The notes below the pieces were generated by a model, which saw only the letters and a program-made list of their open reading frames with translations, did not search any database and was not told the DNA's origin. From an uncultured Actinomycetota bacterium (GTDB lineage: Bacteria > Actinomycetota > Actinomycetes > Mycobacteriales > Mycobacteriaceae): a stretch of DNA of 64,000 nucleotides. The position numbers and the translations under genes are program-made. Positions within the stretch are counted from its first letter, which is position 1. Every line of letters starts with the position of its first letter. Below, piece after piece: positions 42,292-54,189 of this stretch. The stretch covers positions 118,713 through 182,712 of the forward strand of contig CAVZSJ010000005.1 in NCBI GenBank assembly GCA_963777885.1, written 5' to 3'.

Positions 42292-42562
42292 TTATCCGAC
42301 CGCGGGGAAATAACCCCATTTCGCGACGTGACGGGGCCGGAATGCGAGCAGGGTTCGGTCGGATTTCGGACACGTGGGGCTGCCGTGCCGTGTGTTGCGG
42401 TCAGAGTACCGATTGCCTCACGATTCGATATCGTCACTCTAGTCACACCAATCCCACTCGTACCATCAATGGCGTGGGGTTCAGGTCTGCACCGAAGGCT
42501 TGAGTGCAGAGATGGCCCCACAAACGAGATAGCCCGAATGGGCCCAATTGGAGGAGACTTCC

Positions 42563-43723
42563 GTGCCGAACCGACGCCGACGCAAGCTCTCGACAGCCAT
42601 GAGCGCGGTCGCCGCCCTGGCAGTCGCGAGTCCGTGCGCATACTTCCTGGTCTATGAATCGACCGAAAGCCCCAAACCGCCGCAACACCACGAGTTCAAA
42701 CAGGCAGCGGTCGTCACCGACCTGCCCGGCGAGCTCATGGGCGCGCTGACCCAGGGACTGTCGCAGTTTGGGATCAACCTGCCGCCAGTCCCTGCGCTGA
42801 GCGGCACGAGCGCCACGGGCGCCGGGGCGACAAGTCCGGGCCTGGGCCTGGGTAGCCCGAGCCTCGGCACCAGCGGCCTGGGCACCGGTGGCCTGGGCAC
42901 CTCGGGCTTGACAGGTACCGGGCTGACCAGCCCCGGACTGACAAGTCCCGGGCTCGGCACGGGCCTGACGACGGGGGCCGCGACACCTGGGCTGACCACG
43001 CCCAGCACCGCGCTGACGCCGACGTTGCCGACGACCCCGGGCGCGGCTGCTGCTACCACCCCGAACCCCGCCCTCACCAGTCCGGCCGGTGTGGCACCCG
43101 GTATGGGCAGCCCGATCGCGGCTCCCAGCGAGGTGCCGATCTCGGACCCGGGCGCCGACGGCACCTACCCGATCCTGGGTGACCCCTCCGGCCTTGGCGG
43201 TGGCGGGCTGGGTGCCAGCCCGGCTGCCGGCGGCGGCGGCGGTGGTGGCGGTGGCGGTGGGCTCATCAACGACTTGATGCAAGCCGCCAACAGCTTGGGT
43301 GCCGGTCAGGCTATCGACCTGCTCAAGGGCCTGGTGATGCCGGCGATCATGCAGCAAGTCCACGGCGGTGCCGGCGCGGCGGCTGCCGCGCCGGGTGCCG
43401 CGCTCCCGGGTGCGGCGGGCCTGCCGGGGGCGGCTGCCCTGCCGGGTGCCGCGCTCCCGGGTGCGGCGGGTATTCCGGCCACCGCGACCGGCGCGACGCA
43501 CGGTACCGCCGCCCTGCCGACGGGCGCGGCGCACGGTGCCGCGGCGCTGCCGACGGGCGCGGCTCCGGCGACAGCAGGGGCTGCGGGAGCGCTGCCGACC
43601 GCAGCGGGTGCCGCGGCGGCTCCGGCTGCGACGGTTCCGGGTGCGGCGGCTGCCGCGACGGTTCCGGGTGTGGCAGCTCCGGCCGCGGCGGCGCCGGCGG
43701 CCCCGCTGACCCCGCCCATGTAG
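42563..43723 (+). CDS. erp: Exported repetitive protein Erp/PirG
   Basis: GGAGGAG RBS + GTG; MPNRRRRKLSTAMSAVAALAVASP; PGLTS-type repeats; EVPI..GTYPILGDP; GAGQAIDLLKG. Confidence 0.92.
   Translation: MPNRRRRKLSTAMSAVAALAVASPCAYFLVYESTESPKPPQHHEFKQAAVVTDLPGELMGALTQGLSQFGINLPPVPALSGTSATGAGATSPGLGLGSPSLGTSGLGTGGLGTSGLTGTGLTSPGLTSPGLGTGLTTGAATPGLTTPSTALTPTLPTTPGAAAATTPNPALTSPAGVAPGMGSPIAAPSEVPISDPGADGTYPILGDPSGLGGGGLGASPAAGGGGGGGGGGGLINDLMQAANSLGAGQAIDLLKGLVMPAIMQQVHGGAGAAAAAPGAALPGAAGLPGAAALPGAALPGAAGIPATATGATHGTAALPTGAAHGAAALPTGAAPATAGAAGALPTAAGAAAAPAATVPGAAAAATVPGVAAPAAAAPAAPLTPPM
43390..43470 (+). repeat. 30-bp perfect direct repeat in erp 3' region
   Basis: GCCGGGTGCCGCGCTCCCGGGTGCGGCGGG at 43390-43419 and 43441-43470. 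Confidence 0.85.
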
Positions 43724-43790: not shown

Positions 43791-43874
43791 GAACGTTCGT
43801 TCGTGGGGTTTTTCCAGACTCATATACCGTGTCGCCTCATAAATAACAATAGAAACACCCGTAACATCGGCGTT

Positions 43875-45488
43875 ATGGTGTCCCGCAGGCGTGCGCCGAC
43901 GATGTTGCTCACCGCTTTCGCGGCTGCCGTCGTCGTTGTGTCGTGGATCGTGGACCCGACACCCGAAAGCGGCCCAGCCGCTCCGGCCGGCGACACCCAG
44001 CTAGCCGAGCACCCGCTGGTCGGGCTCGGCGGCGGCGTGACGGTTCGCGAGGTTACCCAGGGCGCACCGTTTTCGTTGGTCGCGCTCACCGGCGACCTGG
44101 CCGGCACCGCCACGCGCGTGCGGGCGAAGCACGTCGACGGTTCCTGGGGACCCTGGTACCAGACCGACTTCGAAACCGGTGGGGCAACCGGTGGGGCCGA
44201 AGCGGCGGGACCCCGCAGCACCGACCCGGTGTTCGTCGGCACCACCACGTCCGTGCAGATCGCGGTCACCCGCCCGATCGATGCGCAGGTGACGCAGGCG
44301 CCGGCAGAGTCACCGCCGAACCTCGGATACAAACCGGCCACCAAGGAACAGCCCTTCGGGCAGAACATCTCCGCGATACTCATCTCCCCGCCGCAGGCGC
44401 CGGCCCGACCGCATTGGACGCCCCCGGAGGGAGTGCTGATGCCCGGCCAGGCACCCGCCATCATCAGCCGGGCGGATTGGGGCGCCGACGAGTCGCTGCG
44501 CTGCGGTACGCCAAAGTACGACAACGGGATTCGCGCCGCGGTAATTCACCACACCGCGGGCAGCAATGACTATTCACCCCTGGAATCGGCCGGCATCGTC
44601 AAGGCCATCTACACGTACCACGCCAAGACGCTGGGCTGGTGCGACATCGCGTACAACGCGTTGGTCGACAAATACGGCCAGGCATTCGAGGGCAGCGCGG
44701 GCGGTCTCACCAAACCCGTCGAGGCCTTCCACACCGGTGGGTTCAACCGCAACACCTGGGGTGTGGCGATGATCGGCAACTTCGACGATGTGGCGCCGAG
44801 CCCGCTTCAGGTGCGTACCGTGGGCCGGCTGCTCGGCTGGCGCCTGGGCATGGACAACGTCGACCCCAAGGGCACGGTGGCACTGGAATCGGCCGGTAGC
44901 CACTACACCACCTTCCCGGCCGGCGCCATTGCGACGTTGCCGACCATCTTCACCCACCGCGACGTCGGCAACACCGACTGCCCGGGCAACGCCGCCTACG
45001 CGTTGATGTACGAGATCCGCGACATCGCCTCACATTTCAACGATCCACCCGAGGAACTGATCAAGGCACTCGAAGGTGGCGCGATCTACCAGCACTGGCA
45101 GGAGATCGGCGGCACCAACAGCTTCCTGGGTGCACCGACCTCACCCGAGGACGACGCCGAGGGCGGGGCCCGCTACGCCACGTTCGTCAGGGGCGCGATG
45201 TACTGGTCGCCGGCCACCGGCCCCCAACCCGTGACGGGCGCGATCTACGACGCCTGGGCCTCGCTGAGCTACGAACGCGGTGTGCTCGGATTGCCGACCA
45301 GCGCGGAGATCCAAGAGCCACTGCAGATCACGCAGAACTTCGCGCACGGAACGTTGAACTTCGAGCGGTTGACCGGCAACGTCACCGCGGTCGTCGACGG
45401 AATCACCACGCCGGTCTCGACGCAAACCGCGAGCACACCAGAGGTCCCAGCCGAACACTTCTCGCCACCGGCCCACCCGGCCATCTAG
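43875..45488 (+). CDS. PGRP-like N-acetylmuramoyl-L-alanine amidase with LGFP repeat (Rv3811 ortholog)
   Basis: VIHHTAG, WCDIAYN, THRDVGNTDCPG, LGAPTSPE, LGLPTS. Confidence 0.9.
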   Translation: MVSRRRAPTMLLTAFAAAVVVVSWIVDPTPESGPAAPAGDTQLAEHPLVGLGGGVTVREVTQGAPFSLVALTGDLAGTATRVRAKHVDGSWGPWYQTDFETGGATGGAEAAGPRSTDPVFVGTTTSVQIAVTRPIDAQVTQAPAESPPNLGYKPATKEQPFGQNISAILISPPQAPARPHWTPPEGVLMPGQAPAIISRADWGADESLRCGTPKYDNGIRAAVIHHTAGSNDYSPLESAGIVKAIYTYHAKTLGWCDIAYNALVDKYGQAFEGSAGGLTKPVEAFHTGGFNRNTWGVAMIGNFDDVAPSPLQVRTVGRLLGWRLGMDNVDPKGTVALESAGSHYTTFPAGAIATLPTIFTHRDVGNTDCPGNAAYALMYEIRDIASHFNDPPEELIKALEGGAIYQHWQEIGGTNSFLGAPTSPEDDAEGGARYATFVRGAMYWSPATGPQPVTGAIYDAWASLSYERGVLGLPTSAEIQEPLQITQNFAHGTLNFERLTGNVTAVVDGITTPVSTQTASTPEVPAEHFSPPAHPAI

Positions 45489-45494
45489 CTCCAC

Positions 45495-45500
45495 TAGTCT
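45495..45500 (+). promoter_or_regulatory. Candidate -10 box for a leaderless decarboxylase-synthase transcript
   Basis: TAGTCT (TANNNT) 7 nt before GTG 45508; no SD sequence present. Confidence 0.45.
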
Positions 45501-45507
45501 GCGACGT

Positions 45508-47415
45508 GTGCCCGAGACGCCTTATCTGACCATCCATCTCGGTCGGGTGCGCGAGAACTACCACGCCTTGCACGCCGCACTGCCCGATGCGCGGATCCGC
45601 TACGCGGTCAAGGCGAATCCGGCCGAACCCATCCTGCGTCTGCTGGCGGCCGAGGGCGCGGCCTTCGACGTCGCCTCGATAGGTGAGATCGACGCATGCA
45701 CCGCCGCCGCGATCGACGGCCACCTTCTGACCTTCGGCAACACGCTCAAGAAGCCGGCGGACATCGCTCGAGCGTTCTCGATCGGGGTGCGTCGGTTCAC
45801 CTTTGACACGCACGACGGTGCGACAACCATCGCCGAGCATGCCCCCGGGTCAAGCGTGGAATGCCGTATCGCACCGGCGTTTCCGTCGTCGGTAACCCCG
45901 TTCGGCCACAAGTTCGGTTGCGCTCCGACCGAGGCCGTCGACCTGCTTGACTATGCCCGGTCGCTGGGCCTTCGGCCGGAAGGGGTGTGCTTCCATGTCG
46001 GCTCCCAACAGCTCGACCCCGCCGCATGGGAGATCGGAATACATTGTGCTGAAACGGTCTTCGCCGCCCTGAGCGATCTCACCACCCTCAACGTCGGCGG
46101 CGGCTTCCCCATCGCATACGCGACCGGCGCGCCGGAGCTCGGCCTGGTGACCGACTCCATCATGACCGCGCTGGACCGCCATTTCGGTTCGAGCCCGCCA
46201 CAACTCGTGGTGGAACCCGGACGGGCGATCGTCGGCTCGGCAGGCGCTATCCACTGCGAGGTGGTGTCGGCGCGCGCCGGTACCGATGGGCGGCGCTGGG
46301 TGTACCTCGACATCGGTCGCTACGGCGGCCTCGCCGAAACCGAGAACGAGTACATCCGCTACCGGTTGCGGACCGACCGCGACGACGACCCCGTCGACGA
46401 TGCCGTGATCGCGGGCCCGACCTGCGACGGCGACGACGTGCTCTACCAAAGCTATCCGCTTCCTGGCACGCTGCGGGCAGGAGACCGGGTCGAGATCGCG
46501 GACGCCGGCGCCTACACCGCAAGCTATGCTTCCGTATCGTTCAATGGATTTGCGCCCTTGCCAACGTATTTCGCGGGCAGCATCGCGCGGGACATCGTCG
46601 AGCCGCTGGCTCCCGGACTCACCCGCACCTGGCGGCTGTCGGAAGTCATCTGCGATGTGCGCACCGAATTCCAGCATGTGGTGATCGGCCGCACCGAACA
46701 GGGGGCCGCGTTGTTCTGCGACGGAGAGCGGCAGAGCACCGAGTTCAGCCAGCTCGTTTACCACGAGGCGCTGCTGGTGCCGGCGTTGTTGCTGGCAGGC
46801 AAGATCGAGCGCGTGCTCGTCATCGGGTCCGGCGAGGGGGTGGTCAGCCAGATGGCGGTCGCCGCCGGCGCCACGCATGTCGACCACGTCGACATCGACC
46901 GCGAGGCGGTGAGACTGTGCGCGCAGCATCTGCCGTACGGTTACGCGATAGACGAATTGCTCAGCGCGGAAAAAGGACTCGGCCCGATCACGGTGCACTA
47001 CCGCGACGGCTGGAGCTTCGTAGCCGAATCGAGCACGTCGTACGACGTCGTCGTCGTCGATCTGCCCGACGAGCGAACCGAACCCGTGCAGCACAATCGG
47101 TTGTACGAGGCCGGCTTCCTCAGAGCCTGCCGAGACACCGGTCGAGTGGTGGCCTTTCAGGCTGGGTGCCCGACCCTGTGGCGCAACGACTCGCTGCGGT
47201 ACTCGTGGCGTCGGTTTCACGAAACCTTTGACACGGTCGTGTATTTCGGCAGCGACGAACACGAATGGGCGTTTCTGTCGGGACTGGGCCACGCTGTGCC
47301 GGACCCCGTGGCGGCCATGTCCGCCCGCTTGCCGACCCTGCCCTACCAGCCTCGGACCATCGACACCGACTCGCTGATCGCGTCCACCATTGCGCCGAAA
47401 ACGCTCAGATCTTGA
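45508..47415 (+). CDS. Fusion of fold-type III PLP ornithine/lysine decarboxylase and spermidine-synthase-like aminopropyltransferase
   Basis: N: YAVKAN(K), FDVAS, HVGSQ, NVGGGF, EPGR, GPTCDG, GAYT..FNGF. C (from about 46590): EFQHV, DGERQST, YHE, VLVIGSGEG, VDID, DG, VVVDLPD. One uninterrupted 635-aa frame. Confidence 0.9.
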   Translation: MPETPYLTIHLGRVRENYHALHAALPDARIRYAVKANPAEPILRLLAAEGAAFDVASIGEIDACTAAAIDGHLLTFGNTLKKPADIARAFSIGVRRFTFDTHDGATTIAEHAPGSSVECRIAPAFPSSVTPFGHKFGCAPTEAVDLLDYARSLGLRPEGVCFHVGSQQLDPAAWEIGIHCAETVFAALSDLTTLNVGGGFPIAYATGAPELGLVTDSIMTALDRHFGSSPPQLVVEPGRAIVGSAGAIHCEVVSARAGTDGRRWVYLDIGRYGGLAETENEYIRYRLRTDRDDDPVDDAVIAGPTCDGDDVLYQSYPLPGTLRAGDRVEIADAGAYTASYASVSFNGFAPLPTYFAGSIARDIVEPLAPGLTRTWRLSEVICDVRTEFQHVVIGRTEQGAALFCDGERQSTEFSQLVYHEALLVPALLLAGKIERVLVIGSGEGVVSQMAVAAGATHVDHVDIDREAVRLCAQHLPYGYAIDELLSAEKGLGPITVHYRDGWSFVAESSTSYDVVVVDLPDERTEPVQHNRLYEAGFLRACRDTGRVVAFQAGCPTLWRNDSLRYSWRRFHETFDTVVYFGSDEHEWAFLSGLGHAVPDPVAAMSARLPTLPYQPRTIDTDSLIASTIAPKTLRS

Positions 47416-49363
47416 TCGACGGCAGCAGCCTGGTCAGGTTCCAGAGTCGGTTGCGCCGCGCGGATAGCGATGAGATCGCCAGTGCGACAGCCAATATGCC
47501 CAATAGTGTGATGATCGCCTGCCACAGCCGGTAGTCGATGCCGCCCAGAATCAACTGCCGAAGTCCGTTGACCCCGTATGACATCGGGTCAAAGCGATGC
47601 AAGATTTGGAACGGTTTCGAGGTGGTTTCTACGGGGTACATGCCGCCGGCGCTAACCAGCTGCAGCATGAGTAGAGCCATGATCAGCACCCGACCCACCG
47701 CTGGGCCGACGACGGCGTTGATCGCCTGGGTCGCGGCGACGAAGGCCAAGGAAACCAACACCATGAACGCCAGCATCGCGAACGGATGGACGGCGTGCAT
47801 CCCGAGCGCGAACCGCACGACACAGTAGAGGATGATCGCCTGGAACATCGCGATCGACGCCGCGGGCAGGTAGCTGGCGAGTACTACCCGGATCGACATC
47901 ACCTCAGCGGCGATCGCGCGGTTTTGCAAGGGACGCAACACCATCCACAGCACCAGCGCGCCGAAGAACAGAGCCAGCGTGAGGAAGAACGGCGCCATGC
48001 CGGTGCCGAAGTTGGGCGCGCCGTTTTTGTGGGTGGCCTGCAGATCAACCGGACCGCCGATGGTGTTGGCGATCGCGTCCTTCTGCTGGCTGGTCCAGTT
48101 GGGCACCTGGTTGGCGCCCTCGGCGAGTTTGCCGGCCAGTTCTGCCGCACCCGCCCGCAGTTGCCCGGTTCCCGAGTGCAGCTGTTGTGCGCCGTCGTCG
48201 AGTTTGGCTATGCCGGTTGCCAGTTCAGCGTTACCGGTGGCGAGCTGCTGAGCCCCGTTGCGCAGCTGATTCAGCTTGTTGGTGAGGTCAGAGCCTCGGC
48301 CGCCGACTCGGTCCAAGGCGGCTGTCAAGGGGCTCCCGGATGCGCGCAGCGACTGGGTCATCGAGATCGCGGCGCTTTCCGCGTCGGTCAGCTGCTGGCG
48401 GATCTGCGGCGTGAACTGGTGGCCCCGCAGCTGGTCCTGTATACCCCGCAGCGCCCCCGCGGCATTGCCGGCTGCTGGATCTGGGCTACCGGAGAGCTGA
48501 TCAATGACCGACGAGAGCGAGTTAGCGGCGGCGTCCTGCGCCGTGGCGATGGTGCCGATCTGGTCGGTGGCCTGCTGCAGGGCGGTGGTGCCCTGTTGCA
48601 ATCGCGCTGTGTCGCCGCCGATTTGGGCCAGCGCCTTGCTCACCGCCAGCAGTGGGTCGGTGGCTTCGTTGATCCCGTCGGACAGCTGCTTGGCGCCGGT
48701 GGCAAGCTGTGCCGAACCGGACCGTGCGGTATCGAGACCGGCCGCGAGCTGGCCGGCGCCGTCATCGACCTGGGCCGCCCCGTCGGCGAGCTGTTTTGCC
48801 CCGTCGGCGGCCTGCTTGATTCCGGTGCCGGACGTGACGACCACGGATAGCACGTGGTTGACCGCCTGCCCGGAGATGCGGGAGGACACGGCGTTGAGCA
48901 CCTGGTCGGTGGCAGTGCGGCCAATGCTGGACGAGATGTAGTTGTTGGCGTCGTTGTAGACCGCGATCAGATTGGCTTTCCGCGGTTGCCCGGTCAGGGG
49001 CGATGCGATCGCTTCACTGAAGTCCGGCGGCAACTCGAGCATGAAGTAGTACTGGCCGTGGTCGACTCCGCTGCGCGCCTGGTCGAGGTTCACGACATGC
49101 CAGTCCATGCCGCCGTCGGCGGTCAGGCTCTTGGCGATTTCTGACCCGACGTTCAGCTGCTGCCCGGAGACGACGGCGCCACGGTCGGCATTGACCAGCG
49201 CCACGGGCATCTTGTTCACGTGGCCGAAGGGATCCCAGTACGCCCACAGGTAGAGCGCTCCGTAGACCAGGGGGAGCAGCATCAGCACCACAATGGCTGC
49301 CCGCGTCATCCGGCTGCGGCCGAAACGTTTGATCTCCGAACCGAATGCCAGTCCAGCCAGCAT
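47405..49363 (-). CDS. YhgE/Pip family membrane protein
   Basis: PLVYGALYLWAYWDPFG..PVALVNAD, GAxQLAxG heptad repeats, NFGTGMAPFF, LQLVSAGGMYPVE, PMSYGV. Confidence 0.9.
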   Translation of the reverse strand: MLAGLAFGSEIKRFGRSRMTRAAIVVLMLLPLVYGALYLWAYWDPFGHVNKMPVALVNADRGAVVSGQQLNVGSEIAKSLTADGGMDWHVVNLDQARSGVDHGQYYFMLELPPDFSEAIASPLTGQPRKANLIAVYNDANNYISSSIGRTATDQVLNAVSSRISGQAVNHVLSVVVTSGTGIKQAADGAKQLADGAAQVDDGAGQLAAGLDTARSGSAQLATGAKQLSDGINEATDPLLAVSKALAQIGGDTARLQQGTTALQQATDQIGTIATAQDAAANSLSSVIDQLSGSPDPAAGNAAGALRGIQDQLRGHQFTPQIRQQLTDAESAAISMTQSLRASGSPLTAALDRVGGRGSDLTNKLNQLRNGAQQLATGNAELATGIAKLDDGAQQLHSGTGQLRAGAAELAGKLAEGANQVPNWTSQQKDAIANTIGGPVDLQATHKNGAPNFGTGMAPFFLTLALFFGALVLWMVLRPLQNRAIAAEVMSIRVVLASYLPAASIAMFQAIILYCVVRFALGMHAVHPFAMLAFMVLVSLAFVAATQAINAVVGPAVGRVLIMALLMLQLVSAGGMYPVETTSKPFQILHRFDPMSYGVNGLRQLILGGIDYRLWQAIITLLGILAVALAISSLSARRNRLWNLTRLLPSIKI

Positions 49364-49365
49364 CG

Positions 49366-50034
49366 TTAGCCCCCTTCGGTCAGGATGCGGTGATCGTGTA
49401 GGTCGTGATCGGGGGCGTTGGTTCCGAGCGGATTGGTGACCCCGACGACGACGGTGCGCTGCTCCGCGATCGCACCGAGCCGTTCGACTGCGACCGCCCG
49501 ACGGTCGTTGTCGCGAACTTGCTCGAGATCGCCGACCACCAGGATCGGTCGGTCCGAAAACAGCGCGAGCGTGATGCGCAGCAGGAACAGTTCCAGATCG
49601 GAAAGCTCGACGATGTAAGCCTTTGGCGCAGGCGGGGGAATGTCACCGAAGACTTGTGCCAGCTGGGCCGCACCGGGTTCGTCCGGCACCCGCGAATACC
49701 AGGGCGCCAACCATTGGCGTTGCTCGGCCAGCACAGTCTGAACGGTGACCATCTCCTCGAGCTCATCGATGTCGGCGAACGCCGCGATCGAGCAGTGCCG
49801 GCGGATGGCACGTGGTTCGGTGTCGCCCAGTACGGTCACCGTTCCGCGGGTGGGTTTGAGTCGGCCCGCCAGCGTTAAGAGCAACGTGTGCTGTTCCGGG
49901 CCGCCGGGCATCCGAATGGCGTGAAACCCAGCCGCGAGCTCGAGGTCGATGCCCGAGAACAGCGGTCCGTGTTCGCCGTCCAGACCTAACCCGGCCGCGG
50001 TGATCACGACCGGTATGTCCTGTGGGTCGTCCAT
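49366..50034 (-). CDS. Degenerate ABC ATPase-like protein
   Basis: ABC layout (GPLFSGIDL, LAGRLKPTRGTVTVLG) but Walker A = PGGPEQHT, signature = LSDLE, Walker B = ILVVGD. Confidence 0.75.
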   Translation of the reverse strand: MDDPQDIPVVITAAGLGLDGEHGPLFSGIDLELAAGFHAIRMPGGPEQHTLLLTLAGRLKPTRGTVTVLGDTEPRAIRRHCSIAAFADIDELEEMVTVQTVLAEQRQWLAPWYSRVPDEPGAAQLAQVFGDIPPPAPKAYIVELSDLELFLLRITLALFSDRPILVVGDLEQVRDNDRRAVAVERLGAIAEQRTVVVGVTNPLGTNAPDHDLHDHRILTEGG

Positions 50035-50041
50035 CTCGCCG

Positions 50042-50509
50042 CTACAGAATCGCGACCGCCACGACGATGCCCAGTGCGAACTGCGCCGCCGCGACCATCA
50101 GCGACTCGTAATTGAACTCGTCACTCTGGAACAGCGCGTCCATGTCGATGCCGATGACCAACGTGGCGAATCGCATCATCACCACCTGCGCGATAATTCC
50201 GACGAGCCCGAAAATCGCTGAGCCGACGAGCCCTTCGACCAGCTTTCCCGACGACGCGTAGATCGCCAGCACCACGATGAACGCCATGCTGACCATGCCC
50301 GCGGCGGCAACGACGATCGCGTTCGGCTTTCCGGCGTCGACCATCCTGCGCAACGGCCCCGGCGTGGTGAGGTCGATGGCGTAGAACCCGATCATCATCA
50401 GCACCAACCCGACGATGGCGTACAGGACGATGGCACCGACCCCGCGGGCGAGCACGTTCCAGTATCCCGCATCCCAATAGCCTGACAGGGCAACGCTGGT
50501 TGTTGTCAT
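50042..50509 (-). CDS. DUF350 (YjfL-like) membrane protein
   Basis: About 4 TM; IDLTTPGPL..G.PNA.VVAAA and AAAQFALGIVVAVAI; position beside GspS-like gene as in yjfL-yjfC. Confidence 0.75.
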   Translation of the reverse strand: MTTTSVALSGYWDAGYWNVLARGVGAIVLYAIVGLVLMMIGFYAIDLTTPGPLRRMVDAGKPNAIVVAAAGMVSMAFIVVLAIYASSGKLVEGLVGSAIFGLVGIIAQVVMMRFATLVIGIDMDALFQSDEFNYESLMVAAAQFALGIVVAVAIL

Positions 50510-50540
50510 CGATGATCAACTCCATTCAATTTCATTGGGT

Positions 50541-51719
50541 TCACGAGGATCCTTCTTTCAAAGGGATCCGGTGCGGGACAAAAGCTGCGCCGTCATCGGT
50601 CACCAGTCCGCCGGTCTCGCGGATACCAAGACCCGCCGACGAATCCCCGACGACCCATGCGCCCAGCGCGGGCCGCATGTCGTCGAATTGTGGCAACGGG
50701 TCCAACAATTGGTAGACGAAACCTTCCTCGCCGTAGACGCCGCCCGTCGCGGTGTCCATGCCGGCGCCGACGATGGTGATGTTGGCGCCCTCACGGCCGA
50801 GCTTGGGCTTGCGGACGTATTCGGTGAGCTCGTGCGGATCGTCGAGGTAGGCGGGCAGCAGGTTCGGGTGGCCGGGATACATCTCCCAGAGCACGGCCAG
50901 AATTGCCTTGTTGGACAACAACGTCTTCCACAGCGGTTCGATCCACATCGTCTGCGGCAGGCCCGACACCACATTTTTGCCGAACTCGTCTTCGAGCATC
51001 CATTCCCACGGGTGCAGCTTGAAGATGGTGTCGATCTGCGCCTCTTCCAGGTCGACGAACCGCTTCAGGGCGCTATCCCAACCGATGTCCTCGATCATCA
51101 AGCCGACGGTGTTGAAGCCCGCCTCCGCCGCGGTCTCCTGCAGGTAGGTCGTGGTGATCTGGTCCTCGCCAGTGGCTTCCACGCCGGACCAGCTGAAGTG
51201 TAATTCGTTGCTGGGCAGCAGATCACGAACCACCTTCCAACGGTCGACCAGTTGCTCGTGCAGCGAGTTCCACTGGTCGTCGTTGGGGAACTTGTCTTTG
51301 AGCCAGTACCACTGCAGGATCGCCGCCTCGAGCAGCGTCGTGGGTGTGTCCGCGTTGTACTCCAGCAGCACCGCCGGCCGGCGCCCGTCATAGCGCAAGT
51401 CGAATCGTCCGTACACGTGCGGATCGGAACGACGCCATGATTCGGCGATCGGTTGCCAACTCCATTCCGGCAGACCGAAATCTGCGTACCGCTCCATCAG
51501 TACCACCTGCTCGACGGCGTTCAGGCACATCGAATGCAGCAGCTCGACGTCGGCTTCCAGCGCCAGGATCTCGTCCATGTCGAACTCGTAGTACACCGAC
51601 TCGTCCCAGTACGGCCGGGCCGCGCCCCGCGCGTCACGCGCAGGTGTCCCGTACACCATGCCTTGGGATTCGACGATCGACCGCCAATTCGGTCGAGGCT
51701 GCGTCCTGAGCCGCTTCAC
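50541..51719 (-). CDS. Glutathionylspermidine synthase-like ATP-grasp ligase (YgiC/YjfC type, no amidase domain)
   Basis: YWDES.YY, YGRFDL, LLEYNADTPTTLLEA, QWNSLHE, FKLHPWEW, EPLWK..LSNKAIL, KP.LGREGANI, GLGIRE..T...F.PH. Confidence 0.93.
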   Translation of the reverse strand: MKRLRTQPRPNWRSIVESQGMVYGTPARDARGAARPYWDESVYYEFDMDEILALEADVELLHSMCLNAVEQVVLMERYADFGLPEWSWQPIAESWRRSDPHVYGRFDLRYDGRRPAVLLEYNADTPTTLLEAAILQWYWLKDKFPNDDQWNSLHEQLVDRWKVVRDLLPSNELHFSWSGVEATGEDQITTTYLQETAAEAGFNTVGLMIEDIGWDSALKRFVDLEEAQIDTIFKLHPWEWMLEDEFGKNVVSGLPQTMWIEPLWKTLLSNKAILAVLWEMYPGHPNLLPAYLDDPHELTEYVRKPKLGREGANITIVGAGMDTATGGVYGEEGFVYQLLDPLPQFDDMRPALGAWVVGDSSAGLGIRETGGLVTDDGAAFVPHRIPLKEGSS

Positions 51720-52417
51720 GAGCCCCCGCCCTTGCCGCCACTGAGCTTGCCGCCCAGCCCGCCGCGCTGAATGGTCGTGCCCGACCTCGTTTTAACGGTC
51801 GAGCCGCTGGGAGCCGATATCGAACCACCGATCGGTCGTTGACCGATTGATCCCGAGCTGCCGTAGTAGTACCGGTACTGATGTCCGCCGTAGAAGAAGA
51901 AGCCGTTGAGGCCCGCGGTGTGATTGGTGCAGTAGTCGTCCGGGACGATCACCGGTTGACCGTTGGTGTCGTCCCGGACGCATTGGGCAGTGACGGTGGG
52001 TCCTGAAAACGCCCAATACCCTAGGCCCGCAACCACGCCCACCACTCCGATGCCGACCCCGGCGCCGATCAGTCTGCGATTTCGCTTGTGCCGCTTGGCT
52101 TCCGCTTCGAGTCGCGCCTCTTCGTCCTCGCGCTGCTTTTTGGCGAACTTCTCCCGCGCGCGTAACTCGGCGGGTGTCGGCGCGCGTGGACGTGTCGTTT
52201 CCGCATCCTGAAACTCAACGCTGCCGCCCGACGGGTACGGCTTGGATTGCGTCGGTTCTTCCTGCTCCGACCAGGCCACTGGCGATTCGGGTTCGGCTTG
52301 ATGTTGGTCCGAATGGCGCCCGACCGATTCGGTCTTGTCTGCGTCGGTCTTGTCTGCGTCGGACTTGTCGCCTTGGGGCTCGCCGCTTTCCGGTGGTTTG
52401 TCTTCATCCGAACCCAT
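51716..52417 (-). CDS. YgiB/DUF1190-like single-pass membrane protein with Gly-rich C-terminus
   Basis: Acidic disordered N-terminus, KRHKRNRR + TM, C-x16-C (..PDDYC), Tyr/Gly-rich segment, ends TIQRGGLGGKLSGGKGGGS; GTGA overlap with the ligase gene; GGAGG RBS. Confidence 0.7.
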   Translation of the reverse strand: MGSDEDKPPESGEPQGDKSDADKTDADKTESVGRHSDQHQAEPESPVAWSEQEEPTQSKPYPSGGSVEFQDAETTRPRAPTPAELRAREKFAKKQREDEEARLEAEAKRHKRNRRLIGAGVGIGVVGVVAGLGYWAFSGPTVTAQCVRDDTNGQPVIVPDDYCTNHTAGLNGFFFYGGHQYRYYYGSSGSIGQRPIGGSISAPSGSTVKTRSGTTIQRGGLGGKLSGGKGGGS

Positions 52418-52535
52418 CAGCGGTCCTCCCCTCCGCTCGACCCGCCGGTCACGATGACGCGGCGGGCGTCAGGCCGGAACATGGGCACGCGGGCAGTTTT
52501 CCACATCGCAGCAGCGTACGACGCTAGATGCGGGG

Positions 52536-53354
52536 CTAGACGGGCCACCAGCGTTCCAATACCCGCGCGACGCCGTCCTCGGTGTTCGAGCTGGTGACTT
52601 CGTTGGCGGCGGCCACCGCCTCGGGATGGGCGTTACCCATCGCGACGCCGTGACCTGCGCGCAGCAGCATCGGCACGTCGTTGGGCATGTCGCCGAAGGC
52701 CACCACCTCGCCGTCGCCGATCCCCAGCGGCCGGGCGATCTCCTCGACACCGGTCGCCTTGCTGATTCCCAGCGGCAGGATCTCCACCAGCCCGTTGTTG
52801 GTGGAGTAGGTGATGTCGCCCTCGAGCCCGACATGCTTGGCCAGCTCAGCGGCCATATCCGCGCTGCGCGCGCCGGCTTTGCGGATCAGCAACTTGATGG
52901 CCGGCGCGCTGAGCAGGTCTTCGATCGACACCTCGGTGTTGTCCGGGTTGAGCCACGCGTGCTCGTAGCCGGGCGAGCTGACGAATTGCGGGGTGGCCGC
53001 GTCATGGGCGCTGTTGCCGATCCGCTCGACGGCCAGGCCCGCGCCTGGGATCGCGCGACTCGCGATCTCGGCCAACTCGCCCAGCAGATCGACGGACAGC
53101 GTGCGCGCCGCCAGCACCCGATCGGTCGCAGGATCATAGATCACCGCACCATTGGCGCAGGCCGCCATCGGCGCGAAGCCGAGCGCCTCGACGACGGGGT
53201 GTACCCAGCGCGGTGGCCGCCCGGTCGCCAGGATGAAGTGCGCACCTGCGGCGACGGCAGCGCGCACGGCTTCGCGGGTGCGCGGGGTGATGGTCTCGTC
53301 GTCGTCGAACAACGTGCCGTCGACATCGCAGGCGATGAGGGCCGGCGCCGTCAT
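52536..53354 (-). CDS. Cof-type HAD hydrolase (Rv3813c ortholog)
   Basis: ACDVDGT, ATGRP, KATG, FGDMPND. Confidence 0.93.
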   Translation of the reverse strand: MTAPALIACDVDGTLFDDDETITPRTREAVRAAVAAGAHFILATGRPPRWVHPVVEALGFAPMAACANGAVIYDPATDRVLAARTLSVDLLGELAEIASRAIPGAGLAVERIGNSAHDAATPQFVSSPGYEHAWLNPDNTEVSIEDLLSAPAIKLLIRKAGARSADMAAELAKHVGLEGDITYSTNNGLVEILPLGISKATGVEEIARPLGIGDGEVVAFGDMPNDVPMLLRAGHGVAMGNAHPEAVAAANEVTSSNTEDGVARVLERWWPV

Positions 53355-53403
53355 GTGGTGGTCATATTTTTTTGGATGTCATTCTGCAGATGTCACCCGA
53401 TCG

Positions 53404-54189
53404 TCAGTGCGTTCCACTTTGGTCTTGCCCCGGCCGCGTCACGCCATCGTGTCCATACTTTCGTGCCCGCTCCTGCAGTTCGGCCAGACGGATCGCCCTC
53501 GAGTCGTCCTGGTTCGGCGCGCTGCCACCCAGCCGCCGGGGCACCCAGAACTCCCCCTCGGGATGCGGGTATTCCTGCTGCACTTTGTACAGCAACCCAG
53601 TCATCGCGTTGCGCAGCGCGACGTTGAGCTGCTCGGGCGTGCCCTGCGGCGCGAGCGGACGCCCGATCGCCACGGTGACCGGAACCTTGTTGCGGAACAC
53701 CTTTTTCGGATGGTCTTTGGGCCAGATCCGGTGTGCCCCCCAGACGATCGTCGGGATGATCGGCACCCGCGCGGCCAGCGCCATCCGCGCCGCGCCGGTC
53801 TTGAACTCCCTGAGTTCGAAACTGCGGCTGATGGTGGCCTCGGGGTGTACCCCGATGAGTTCTCCCTCGCGCAGACGCTGCACGGCCACGTCGAAAGCAT
53901 CCTGTCCCCTGGTGCGGTCGACGGGAATCAGCCGGGCGTGCTTGATCACGTAGTTGGCCGCTTTCACGTCCGCCATTTCGGCCTTGATCATGAAATACAT
54001 GCGCCGGCCCCGCTCCCGCACGGCGAATAACGGTGGCAGCCAGTCCAGGTAGCTGGTGTGGTTCTGCGCGAGAATGGCAGGACCCCGCGCGGGAATGTAC
54101 TCCAGCCCCTGGAACGTGAACGTGGTTCCGTTCATCGCGACCATCGGCGGAACGATCCACTCCCCCAGACGGTAAAACGGCTCTGCCAT
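53404..54189 (-). CDS. PlsC-like acyltransferase (Rv3814c ortholog)
   Basis: NHTSYLD, HPEATISR, KTGAAR. Confidence 0.92.
   Translation of the reverse strand: MAEPFYRLGEWIVPPMVAMNGTTFTFQGLEYIPARGPAILAQNHTSYLDWLPPLFAVRERGRRMYFMIKAEMADVKAANYVIKHARLIPVDRTRGQDAFDVAVQRLREGELIGVHPEATISRSFELREFKTGAARMALAARVPIIPTIVWGAHRIWPKDHPKKVFRNKVPVTVAIGRPLAPQGTPEQLNVALRNAMTGLLYKVQQEYPHPEGEFWVPRRLGGSAPNQDDSRAIRLAELQERARKYGHDGVTRPGQDQSGTH

Follow-up and report, generated by a model that had tools for sequence, protein, structure and literature searches.

A decarboxylase-aminopropyltransferase fusion without an AdoMet decarboxylase domain and its probable coupling to a YgiC/YjfC-type ligase triad in mycobacteria

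The present work deals with six genes found at positions 45508 to 52417 of a 64,000-nucleotide stretch of DNA (hereafter the window; contig CAVZSJ010000005.1, positions 118,713 to 182,712) from an uncultured member of the Mycobacteriaceae. One gene, on the forward strand, encodes a lysine/ornithine decarboxylase (L/ODC) fused to an aminopropyltransferase (APT). Five genes on the reverse strand converge on it and encode a membrane partner protein (TM233), an ATP-grasp ligase of the YgiC/YjfC type, a DUF350 protein, a degenerate ABC nucleotide-binding domain (NBD) protein and a YhgE/Pip membrane protein. We conclude, with fair though far from complete confidence, that this locus consists of three evolutionarily separate modules, namely the partner-ligase-DUF350 triad, the fusion and the NBD-Pip pair, and that the first two are functionally coupled while the third is an unrelated passenger. 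Direct analysis established which genes are present, how the fusion originated, that S-adenosylmethionine decarboxylase (AdoMetDC) is absent, that the genes are under selection, that they co-occur and that the NBD-Pip pair is independent. The original prediction, made from the letters of this DNA, had assigned all six genes to one polyamine synthesis-conjugation-export system; its link between the fusion and the ligase operon stood up, while the export arm, the self-containment and the role in phage defence did not.

In the scheme that we propose, the decarboxylase domain would convert ornithine and/or lysine to putrescine and/or cadaverine, as suggested by its intact motifs and its closest solved homologue, and the fusion would supply the ligase with an amine. 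The ligase, which would be cytoplasmic, may join a polyamine to the carboxylate of a peptide through an ATP-driven amide bond, judging from its homology with YgiC and YjfC, and the partner and the DUF350 protein would, also by homology, tie this chemistry to the membrane. Fusion and triad would have been brought together in convergent orientation between the orthologues of Rv3811 and Rv3813c in Mycobacterium, and the NBD-Pip cassette would have landed between them in the sub-clade of the window, outside the conserved system.

Association of the polyamine cassette with the ligase triad

The distribution of the modules was determined in a family sample of 151 Mycobacteriaceae genomes belonging to 34 genera and, where stated, in a class sample of 301 Actinomycetes genomes. 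In the family sample, the fusion (45508-47415, forward strand, 635 residues; PF02784, PF00278 and PF01564) occurred as a single open reading frame (ORF) only in the window genome and in genome G124, which is from the same genus. Unfused orthologues, sharing 50-62% identity with it and encoded by adjacent genes, were present in 16 genomes of eight other genera. They comprise an L/ODC gene followed by a gene for an AdoMetDC (PF02675, with its ESH self-processing motif) linked to the APT, an arrangement to which we refer as the cassette. No orthologue of the cassette transferase was found outside Mycobacteriaceae in the class sample. The neighbourhoods of the triad were analysed by tblastn and ORF clustering over 10 kb on either side of 40 ligase matches in the family.

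The triad was present in 17 of the 18 genomes with a cassette or a fusion, as compared with 24 of the 133 genomes without one (contingency table 17/1/24/109; Fisher p = 1.9e-10). When genera were counted instead, all 9 cassette genera fell within the 15 triad genera of the 34 (p = 9.5e-5). Further evidence for a link came from genus g24, where the cassette is intact in the four genomes that possess the triad and reduced to remnants in the four that do not, these remnants consisting of APT sequences with internal stops, decarboxylase fragments and lone AdoMetDC ORFs of 142-148 residues (G106, C1:1098942-1101117; G023, C79:31674-31997; G121, C1:1151928-1152251; G135, C10:103336-103659 and C2:155569-156647). 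Finally, fusion and triad are adjacent in nine lineages of Mycobacterium (the window, L074/L075, L076, L078, L080, L081, L086, L088 and L002), and in the islands of this genus that were examined, the two modules converge between the HAD hydrolase gene and the Rv3811 orthologue, with varying DNA between them. The nested distribution, the correlated loss in g24 and the adjacency in Mycobacterium together support the view that the two modules are functionally coupled, the amine for the ligase coming from the cassette. The connection of the polyamine enzyme with the GspS-like operon, as initially predicted, is thus supported by the counts (17/18 versus 24/133) and by the nine lineages, and the nested phyletic pattern with correlated loss that ties a polyamine cassette to a YgiC-like triad in Mycobacteriales is new.

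Several observations weigh against the interpretation as a whole. The co-occurrence statistics allow for kinship only through the genus-level count. In M. intermedium (L087:8001-17917), the fusion lies beside the Rv3811 orthologue with no triad within 8 kb, which may reflect a large insertion or a loss of the triad. Outside Mycobacterium, cassette and triad are unlinked, being 170 kb to several Mb apart, and 24 genomes have the triad without the cassette, so that the ligase cannot be strictly dependent on the latter. As detailed below, the APT domain has no known co-substrate in the absence of AdoMetDC. As to the passenger status of the NBD-Pip pair, its coupling to the DUF350 gene, with a gap of 7 nt, is kept in three lineages, and the pair could have been functionally recruited in this sub-clade.

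The large distances outside Mycobacterium and the existence of cassette-less triads, also outside the family, where the triad occurs without this cassette, would fit with the two modules being neighbours by synteny only, the fusion acting as a general polyamine (diamine) enzyme and the ligase using another amine or any amine available. The same can be said of the fusion being more likely to be co-transcribed with the Rv3811 orthologue, from which it is separated by 19 nt, than with the triad. We nonetheless find this explanation rather unlikely in view of the nested distribution (17/18; p = 2e-10), of the fact that the g24 cassette decayed exactly in the genomes lacking the triad, of the persistence of the adjacency across nine Mycobacterium lineages in spite of the turnover of the intervening DNA, and of the recurrence of polyamine genes beside GspS-like/DUF350 modules in other phyla (PMC11237479). 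If cassette and triad are functionally coupled, the amine used by the ligase can be approached genetically by pairing species that have the cassette with species that lack it.

Origin of the fusion and absence of AdoMetDC

The N-terminal part of the fusion (45508..46575, forward strand; PF02784 and PF00278) is an L/ODC domain of the alanine-racemase fold, dependent on pyridoxal 5'-phosphate (PLP), and the C-terminal part (46576..47415, forward strand; PF01564) is a SpeE-like APT domain. The closest solved homologues of the former are the L/ODCs of Selenomonas ruminantium (5GJM, the best match in the PDB, E = 1.9e-58) and Vibrio vulnificus (2PLJ, 2.2e-45). Alignment with 5GJM indicated conservation of the motifs YAVKANP (which contains the PLP lysine), HVGSQ, GGGFP, EPGR and GPTCDGDD, and the domain thus keeps both the PLP lysine and the catalytic Cys-Asp motif. 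The Selenomonas and Vibrio proteins are stand-alone enzymes, in contrast with the decarboxylase found here, which would act on lysine and/or ornithine.

The APT domain matched spermidine synthases of the PDB (E = 4e-18) and fits the PF01564 fold with its G-x-G-[DE]-G, D-x-D and D-x-x-D motifs. Its GSGEG sequence corresponds to GGGEG in Thermus SpeE (3ANX), and its motifs GSGEG, DHVDID, DGW and DLPDE are identical to those of the AdoMetDC-linked orthologues. Comparison with G124 (dS ~0.7) gave dN/dS ratios of 0.235 for the decarboxylase domain and 0.167 for the APT domain, similar to those of the neighbouring genes; both domains are under purifying selection. Fused and unfused orthologues differ by V505, S562, small indels and five peripheral positions in the decarboxylase domain. 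We also considered that the fused domains might have acquired new functions, and rejected this because no substitution specific to the fused group was found within the catalytic motifs.

The way in which the fusion was formed could be deduced from the alignment ends. Residues 120-404 of the AdoMetDC-APT protein of L042 align with positions 46576-47412 of the window, and the L/ODC orthologues end about 10 residues beyond their NGF.PL motif. The match of these ends means that the window fusion corresponds to the cassette minus, in frame, the AdoMetDC domain and the gene boundary. Since the junction and two small indels are common to seven Mycobacterium fusions, the event must have happened once. 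The alignments show that the fusion arose, to all appearances in an ancestor of slow-growing mycobacteria, by in-frame loss of the AdoMetDC domain. When clustered at 90% identity, the fusions of slow-growing mycobacteria form more than 100 clusters; M. kansasii, M. szulgai, M. lacus, M. asiaticum, M. montefiorense and M. florentinum are among the species that have one, and the protein is annotated in these relatives under the names 'alanine racemase' and 'spermidine synthase domain protein'. The conservation of an AdoMetDC-less L/ODC-APT fusion across slow-growing mycobacteria is a new finding.

An AdoMetDC-APT fusion has been shown experimentally to be functional in Ca. Pelagibacter (PMC11107197). 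The actinobacterial cassette is of this type, and its APT is orthologous to that of the window fusion, with 56-62% identity and the same motifs. Yet the Pelagibacter and cassette proteins keep their AdoMetDC, whereas in the window the decarboxylase is joined in its place. In genus g8 (L051:11980-12981, and L055), L/ODC, AdoMetDC and APT are three separate genes that follow a gene of the arginase family, which suggests that the complete route from arginine to polyamines is encoded there. No homologue of this arginase-family gene was found in the window genome (tblastn, E > 0.5).

We searched the window genome for an AdoMetDC encoded elsewhere. A scan with PF02675 gave no match, although the same profile was positive in seven control genomes, and tblastn of four orthologous AdoMetDC domains against the whole genome returned only noise (best E = 0.18). 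PF01536, the profile of class 2 AdoMetDC, was also without match, but the control genomes were silent with it too. AdoMetDC was found in 19 of the 151 family genomes, in 16 of them within the cassette, and it was absent from all eight genomes of the window's genus (the window genome and seven others). The transferase domain is therefore conserved without a recognisable source of its co-substrate, and the proposal that polyamine synthesis at this locus is self-contained could not be upheld, there being no AdoMetDC for the APT anywhere in the genome.

The genome encodes a second SpeE paralogue (C7:62331-63899, reverse strand), a membrane-fused protein of 522 residues of the Rv2601 type with the motifs GGGDG and DLPDPD; its gene adjoins ruvA/ruvB, and it too is without an AdoMetDC partner. 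Neither a search with PF03994 nor direct reading of the gap revealed a DUF350 gene beside it. In M. tuberculosis, according to the original prediction, a DUF350 gene lies beside speE. To our knowledge, mycobacteria encode SpeE-like enzymes but no AdoMetDC. This old puzzle is sharpened by an AdoMetDC-less fusion that is kept in many non-tuberculous mycobacteria, among which M. kansasii and M. szulgai.

The ligase, the DUF350 protein and the membrane partner

The ligase (50541-51719, reverse strand, 392 residues) matches PF03738 over its full length (E = 2.9e-148; residues 12-385 on profile positions 1-371). Its PDB matches were YgiC (7UK8, E = 1.5e-89) and YjfC (7UK6, E = 4e-79), and it is far more distant from GspS (1.4e-24) and trypanothione synthetase (1.7e-36). 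It is homologous to the synthetase domain of GspS and contains no CHAP amidase or other domain. The gene is present in a single copy in the genome, in 41 of the 151 family genomes and in 44 of the 301 Actinomycetes genomes; the protein shares 70-90% identity across the genera of Mycobacteriaceae, and its dN/dS ratio is 0.09 in the comparison with G124. We predict that it is a peptide-polyamine ligase; ATP-dependent ligation of spermidine to the carboxylates of peptides has been described for the E. coli enzymes only (Pederick 2023, as cited in PMC11762307). The DUF350 protein (50042-50509, reverse strand, 155 residues) belongs to the YjfL family, with 60 bits against PF03994 for a cut-off of 26; it was the sole match in a scan of the genome, in which it scored 59.2 bits. 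Its four hydrophobic segments correspond to a protein with four transmembrane (TM) helices. By tblastn, 38 of the 40 family loci have a DUF350 gene directly downstream of the ligase gene, and 31 of the 40 have a homologue of the partner directly upstream of it.

RefSeq names the E. coli proteins YgiC and YjfC 'peptide--spermidine ligase' and gives the gene orders ygiB(DUF1190)-ygiC and yjfL(DUF350)-yjfM(DUF1190)-yjfC. According to the account of Pederick 2023 given in PMC11762307, they are peptide-spermidine ligases, the physiological substrate and role of which have not been established. The window ligase is homologous over its full length to those of the tolC-ygiB-ygiC and yjfI-J-K-L-M-C operons, and it is likewise found beside a DUF350 gene and, directly upstream, a gene whose product is a small envelope protein carrying an RGG[FYL]G motif and a Gly/Ser tail. 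The differences are that the E. coli partner is a DUF1190 lipoprotein ending in Gly-Gly, while the window partner is anchored by a TM helix, has no DUF1190 match and ends in Gly-Ser; that the order in the window is partner-ligase-DUF350; that genes for TolC, PspA, YjfI and YjfK are not found nearby; and that the window triad is coupled to a polyamine-synthesis fusion, unlike the E. coli operons. On these sequence comparisons, the triad is best described as the actinobacterial form of the ygiB-ygiC / yjfL-yjfM-yjfC module. YgiC and YjfC being solved and biochemically active ligases without an assigned natural substrate, the interest of the Mycobacteriales orthologue is that it co-occurs, in a nested pattern and with correlated loss, with a dedicated polyamine cassette.

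Through comparative genomics, Ravi et al. 2024 (PMC11237479) found operons for a GspS-like ligase, DUF350 and DUF1190 to be recurrently tied to polyamine genes; the same association is credited there to Li et al. 2019 (Biochem J). These operons contain the same three families together with AdoMetDC, a spermidine synthase-like protein (SpdSyn-like) and polyamine oxidase, and a role in envelope or membrane stress was proposed for them (PMC11237479). The window locus differs by the lack of a CesT/Tir-PspA dyad, a potassium channel and DUF2491, by the nature of its polyamine partner, an L/ODC of the alanine-racemase fold fused to an AdoMetDC-less APT, and by the fact that in most genera of the family triad and cassette merely co-occur without being linked. 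The genes surrounding the triad, both in the window and in nine Mycobacterium islands, included neither the CesT/Tir-PspA dyad nor its DUF4247, DUF2617 or band-7 replacements. Outside Mycobacterium (L013:8874-19294 and others of L003-L039), the triad has a fixed synteny, being preceded by kdpABC/kdpB-kdpC-kdpD-kdpE and by genes for OsmC, an SGL/gluconolactonase-like protein and acylphosphatase, and followed by smc; a potassium channel is among the components that Ravi et al. report for related operons (PMC11237479). The system had been put forward as undescribed. This does not hold, as the YgiC/YjfC ligases (Pederick 2023, as cited in PMC11762307) and the association of the families (PMC11237479) are published.

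The partner, TM233 (51716-52417, reverse strand, 233 residues), has 466 homologues. Its N-terminal half is disordered, charged and predicted to be cytoplasmic, with invariant residues G65, Q70, R78, E84, R86 and R88. A single TM helix at residues 116-134, preceded by KRHKRNRR, is followed by a domain predicted to lie outside, with two invariant cysteines, the sequences YRYYYG and RGG[LF]G, and a Gly/Ser/Lys tail (...GGKLSGGKGGGS). The tail varies in length (8-20 residues) and in composition. The end itself is almost constant, since 119 of 120 homologues from Mycobacterium terminate in Ser and 116 of the 120 in Gly-Ser.

It had been described as YgiB-like, which no match to the PF06693 profile confirms; what resembles YgiB and YjfM is its position upstream of the ligase and a C-terminal stretch of about 38 residues that ends in the RGG[LFY]G motif and a Gly/Ser tail. 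No Pfam match was found at E <= 10, PF06693 (DUF1190) included, and a scan of the whole genome with PF06693 at the same threshold gave nothing, the control being positive in E. coli. Weak matches of TM233 to PF28211/NF045516 'GlpR/SepX' fall in its low-complexity N-terminal region. In YgiB and YjfM, T[VI]xRGG[FY]G and a short Gly/Ser tail occupy the corresponding place, and BLASTP of TM233 against them found only TT[IV]xRGG[LF]G; hhalign gave a probability of 13.8% (E = 0.002) over 38 C-terminal columns only. Membership of DUF1190 was therefore rejected, as Pfam, the genome scan, BLASTP and hhalign gave only a weak C-terminal motif. We regard TM233 as a positional and motif-level analogue of YgiB/YjfM, homology being unproven, and its TM-anchored, Gly-Ser-ended form as a new variant of the partner.

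GspS-family enzymes act on the carboxylate of a C-terminal glycine, as established for GspS itself. One may ask if the ligase attaches a polyamine to the C-terminus of the partner encoded beside it, the Gly-Ser end being activated as an acyl phosphate and amidated before or during export. This is compatible with the 4-nt overlap of the two genes, with the near-invariant end of the partner in spite of its variable tail (Ser in 119/120 and Gly-Ser in 116/120), with the RGG[LFY]G motif and Gly/Ser tail shared with YgiB and YjfM (in which the end is Gly-Gly) and with the fact that, as far as PMC11762307 reports it, the physiological peptide substrate of YgiC/YjfC has not yet been assigned. However, the K/R/H cluster before the TM helix and the two invariant cysteines after it suggest that the tail lies outside the cell, so that it would hardly be reached by a cytoplasmic ATP-grasp enzyme, and we consider such a modification unlikely. 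An extension of this idea, which we find distinctly unlikely, is that the APT domain, if catalytic, would use a non-homologous route to decarboxylated AdoMet, or another donor or acceptor, and that its product would feed a ligase amidating the Gly-Ser C-terminus of the partner. If true, this would amount to protein C-terminal polyaminylation and would name the natural substrate of the YgiC/YjfC family.

The NBD-Pip pair, the variable slot and the flanking genes

The YhgE/Pip protein (47405-49363, reverse strand, 652 residues; TIGR03061, TIGR03062, TIGR03057 and PF12698) scored 191.6 bits with TIGR03061 (cut-off 96) and 237.1 with TIGR03062 (cut-off 102), and is an ABC-2-type permease with a large heptad-repeat ectodomain. 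Other members of this family are Lactococcus Pip and B. subtilis YueB, which are phage receptors, and EsaA of type VII secretion. The window protein resembles them by its N- and C-terminal signature domains, its ABC-2 permease fold and its heptad-repeat ectodomain; it departs from family members working with an ABC NBD in that its cognate NBD lacks the Walker A lysine and in that the pair is a passenger. The NBD protein (49366-50034, reverse strand, 222 residues) had no Pfam match, and a profile of 11 homologues matched ABC NBDs of the PDB (YbiT, 1e-7; MlaF, 2e-6). Its Walker A motif reads GGPEQHT in the window and GSGRT in distant homologues, and its signature reads LSDLE. The Walker A lysine is missing in all 11 homologues, being replaced by R in the distant ones and by Q/H in the window. 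The absence of this lysine throughout the family, together with the LSDLE signature, justifies the term 'degenerate NBD' for the protein that had earlier been described as a dead ABC ATPase.

The NBD family is present in 73 of the 151 family genomes, and the gene was always followed by a YhgE/Pip gene in the 16 loci examined, often downstream of an acyl-CoA dehydrogenase gene and otherwise in variable surroundings. The pair was about as frequent in genomes with the triad (19/41) as in those without it (54/110; p = 0.86), and showed no association with the cassette (p = 0.21). Not one of the 40 family loci has it next to the triad, an arrangement seen only in the window and in two related uncultured lineages, L074/L075 and L076, and it is absent from G124, which has both triad and fusion.

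What lies between the DUF350 gene and the fusion varies between species. In M. heidelbergense and M. kansasii, this slot contains no gene (2 nt and 116 nt, respectively). M. saskatchewanense and M. szulgai have a PE gene there, and M. riyadhense a PE gene with a PIN-type toxin-antitoxin pair; in M. tuberculosis, according to the original prediction, the occupant is PE_PGRS62. In G124, it is occupied by a major facilitator superfamily (MFS) gene, a methyltransferase gene and three other genes. The MFS gene (L002:14017-15210), which overlaps the 3' end of the fusion by 4 nt, could encode a polyamine exporter; after it come a class I methyltransferase gene and two ORFs that had no Pfam match. In M. 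intermedium, the genes that follow the fusion code for a P450, a hydrolase, a metallophosphatase and an SMC-like ATPase. In the window, the NBD-Pip insert spans almost exactly two ORFs, and no repeats or mobile-element remnants were noticed. As the contents of the slot differ across species, we take the NBD-Pip pair to be a passenger in it. This small hot spot of gene turnover in the Rv3811-Rv3813c interval, with PE genes in three of the species examined, is new and bears on how the cell-wall gene cluster has evolved.

In the lineage of the window, the 7-nt gap between the DUF350 and NBD genes makes read-through transcription from the triad probable, and the NBD-Pip pair is thus probably co-transcribed with it. 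The spacings of 7 and 2 nt, which point to co-transcription from DUF350 to Pip, the six-gene order kept in two further lineages (L074/L075 and L076) and the fact that the sole NBD-Pip pair of the genome sits at this locus would suit a single self-contained system that makes a polyamine, ligates it and delivers it to the envelope via NBD/Pip for stress or phage defence; this is very unlikely given the absence of the pair next to the triad in the 40 other loci, its independent distribution (19/41 versus 54/110, p = 0.86), the empty or otherwise filled slot of other species (PE, PIN toxin-antitoxin or MFS/methyltransferase genes), the missing Walker A lysine and the lack of a PADLOC defence match beyond a generic methyltransferase fold. 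The dead ATPase and Pip can thus no longer be seen as a delivery arm, forming as they do an independent cassette (73/151; p = 0.86) that adjoins the triad in one sub-clade. A PADLOC search identified no defence system, its sole match being that of the methyltransferase fold of the APT to mad2; phage defence, which had been suggested as a role, was rejected on this ground, nothing relevant having been returned.

All six ORFs are to be considered as real genes rather than chance ORFs of a high-GC genome, judging from their codon composition and conservation. GC content at third codon positions (GC3) amounts to 0.77-0.86 in five of the six, and all six have conserved homologues in other genomes; TM233, with a weaker GC3 signal that passed only the looser GC3-GC2 threshold, owes its place to conservation. 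The ORF coordinates give spacings of -4, 31, 7 and 2 nt along the reverse-strand genes, the stop of the partner gene overlapping the start of the ligase gene by 4 nt. A scan of 45000-53500 disclosed no promoter-like sites and no convincing terminators between the operon genes. The convergent fusion and Pip genes overlap at their 3' ends by 11 nt (47405-47415), which leaves no space for a terminator between them. ORFs, coordinates and spacings are all as predicted initially, and profile matches bear out the families assigned to the fusion, the GspS-like ligase, the DUF350 protein and YhgE/Pip.

The locus sits within the glf-glfT2 / acyltransferase cell-wall cluster. On one side it is flanked by a gene for a protein with Amidase_2 and LGFP repeats (43803..45488, forward strand; Pfam), identified as the orthologue of Rv3811 (Csp) because the orthologues of this protein in relatives carry PF27503 (Rv3811_N). 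The fusion starts 19 nt past this gene, and the gap is also short in relatives (21-45 nt in L074, L078, L080, L081, L086 and L088), which means that the two are probably co-transcribed. On the other side, a Cof-type HAD-IIB hydrolase gene, the Rv3813c orthologue (52536-53354, reverse strand; PF08282 and TIGR00099), lies 118 nt upstream of the triad on the same strand and is kept in all Mycobacterium islands examined. The position that had been claimed for the locus, between the orthologues of Rv3811 and Rv3813c, is thus verified on both sides. Between glf and the Rv3811 orthologue, there is an ORF of 391 residues without Pfam match (42548-43723, forward strand; GC ~0.73), the opposite strand of which holds an equally long ORF. 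By its position, the 391-residue ORF is probably the repeat protein Erp/PirG (Rv3810).

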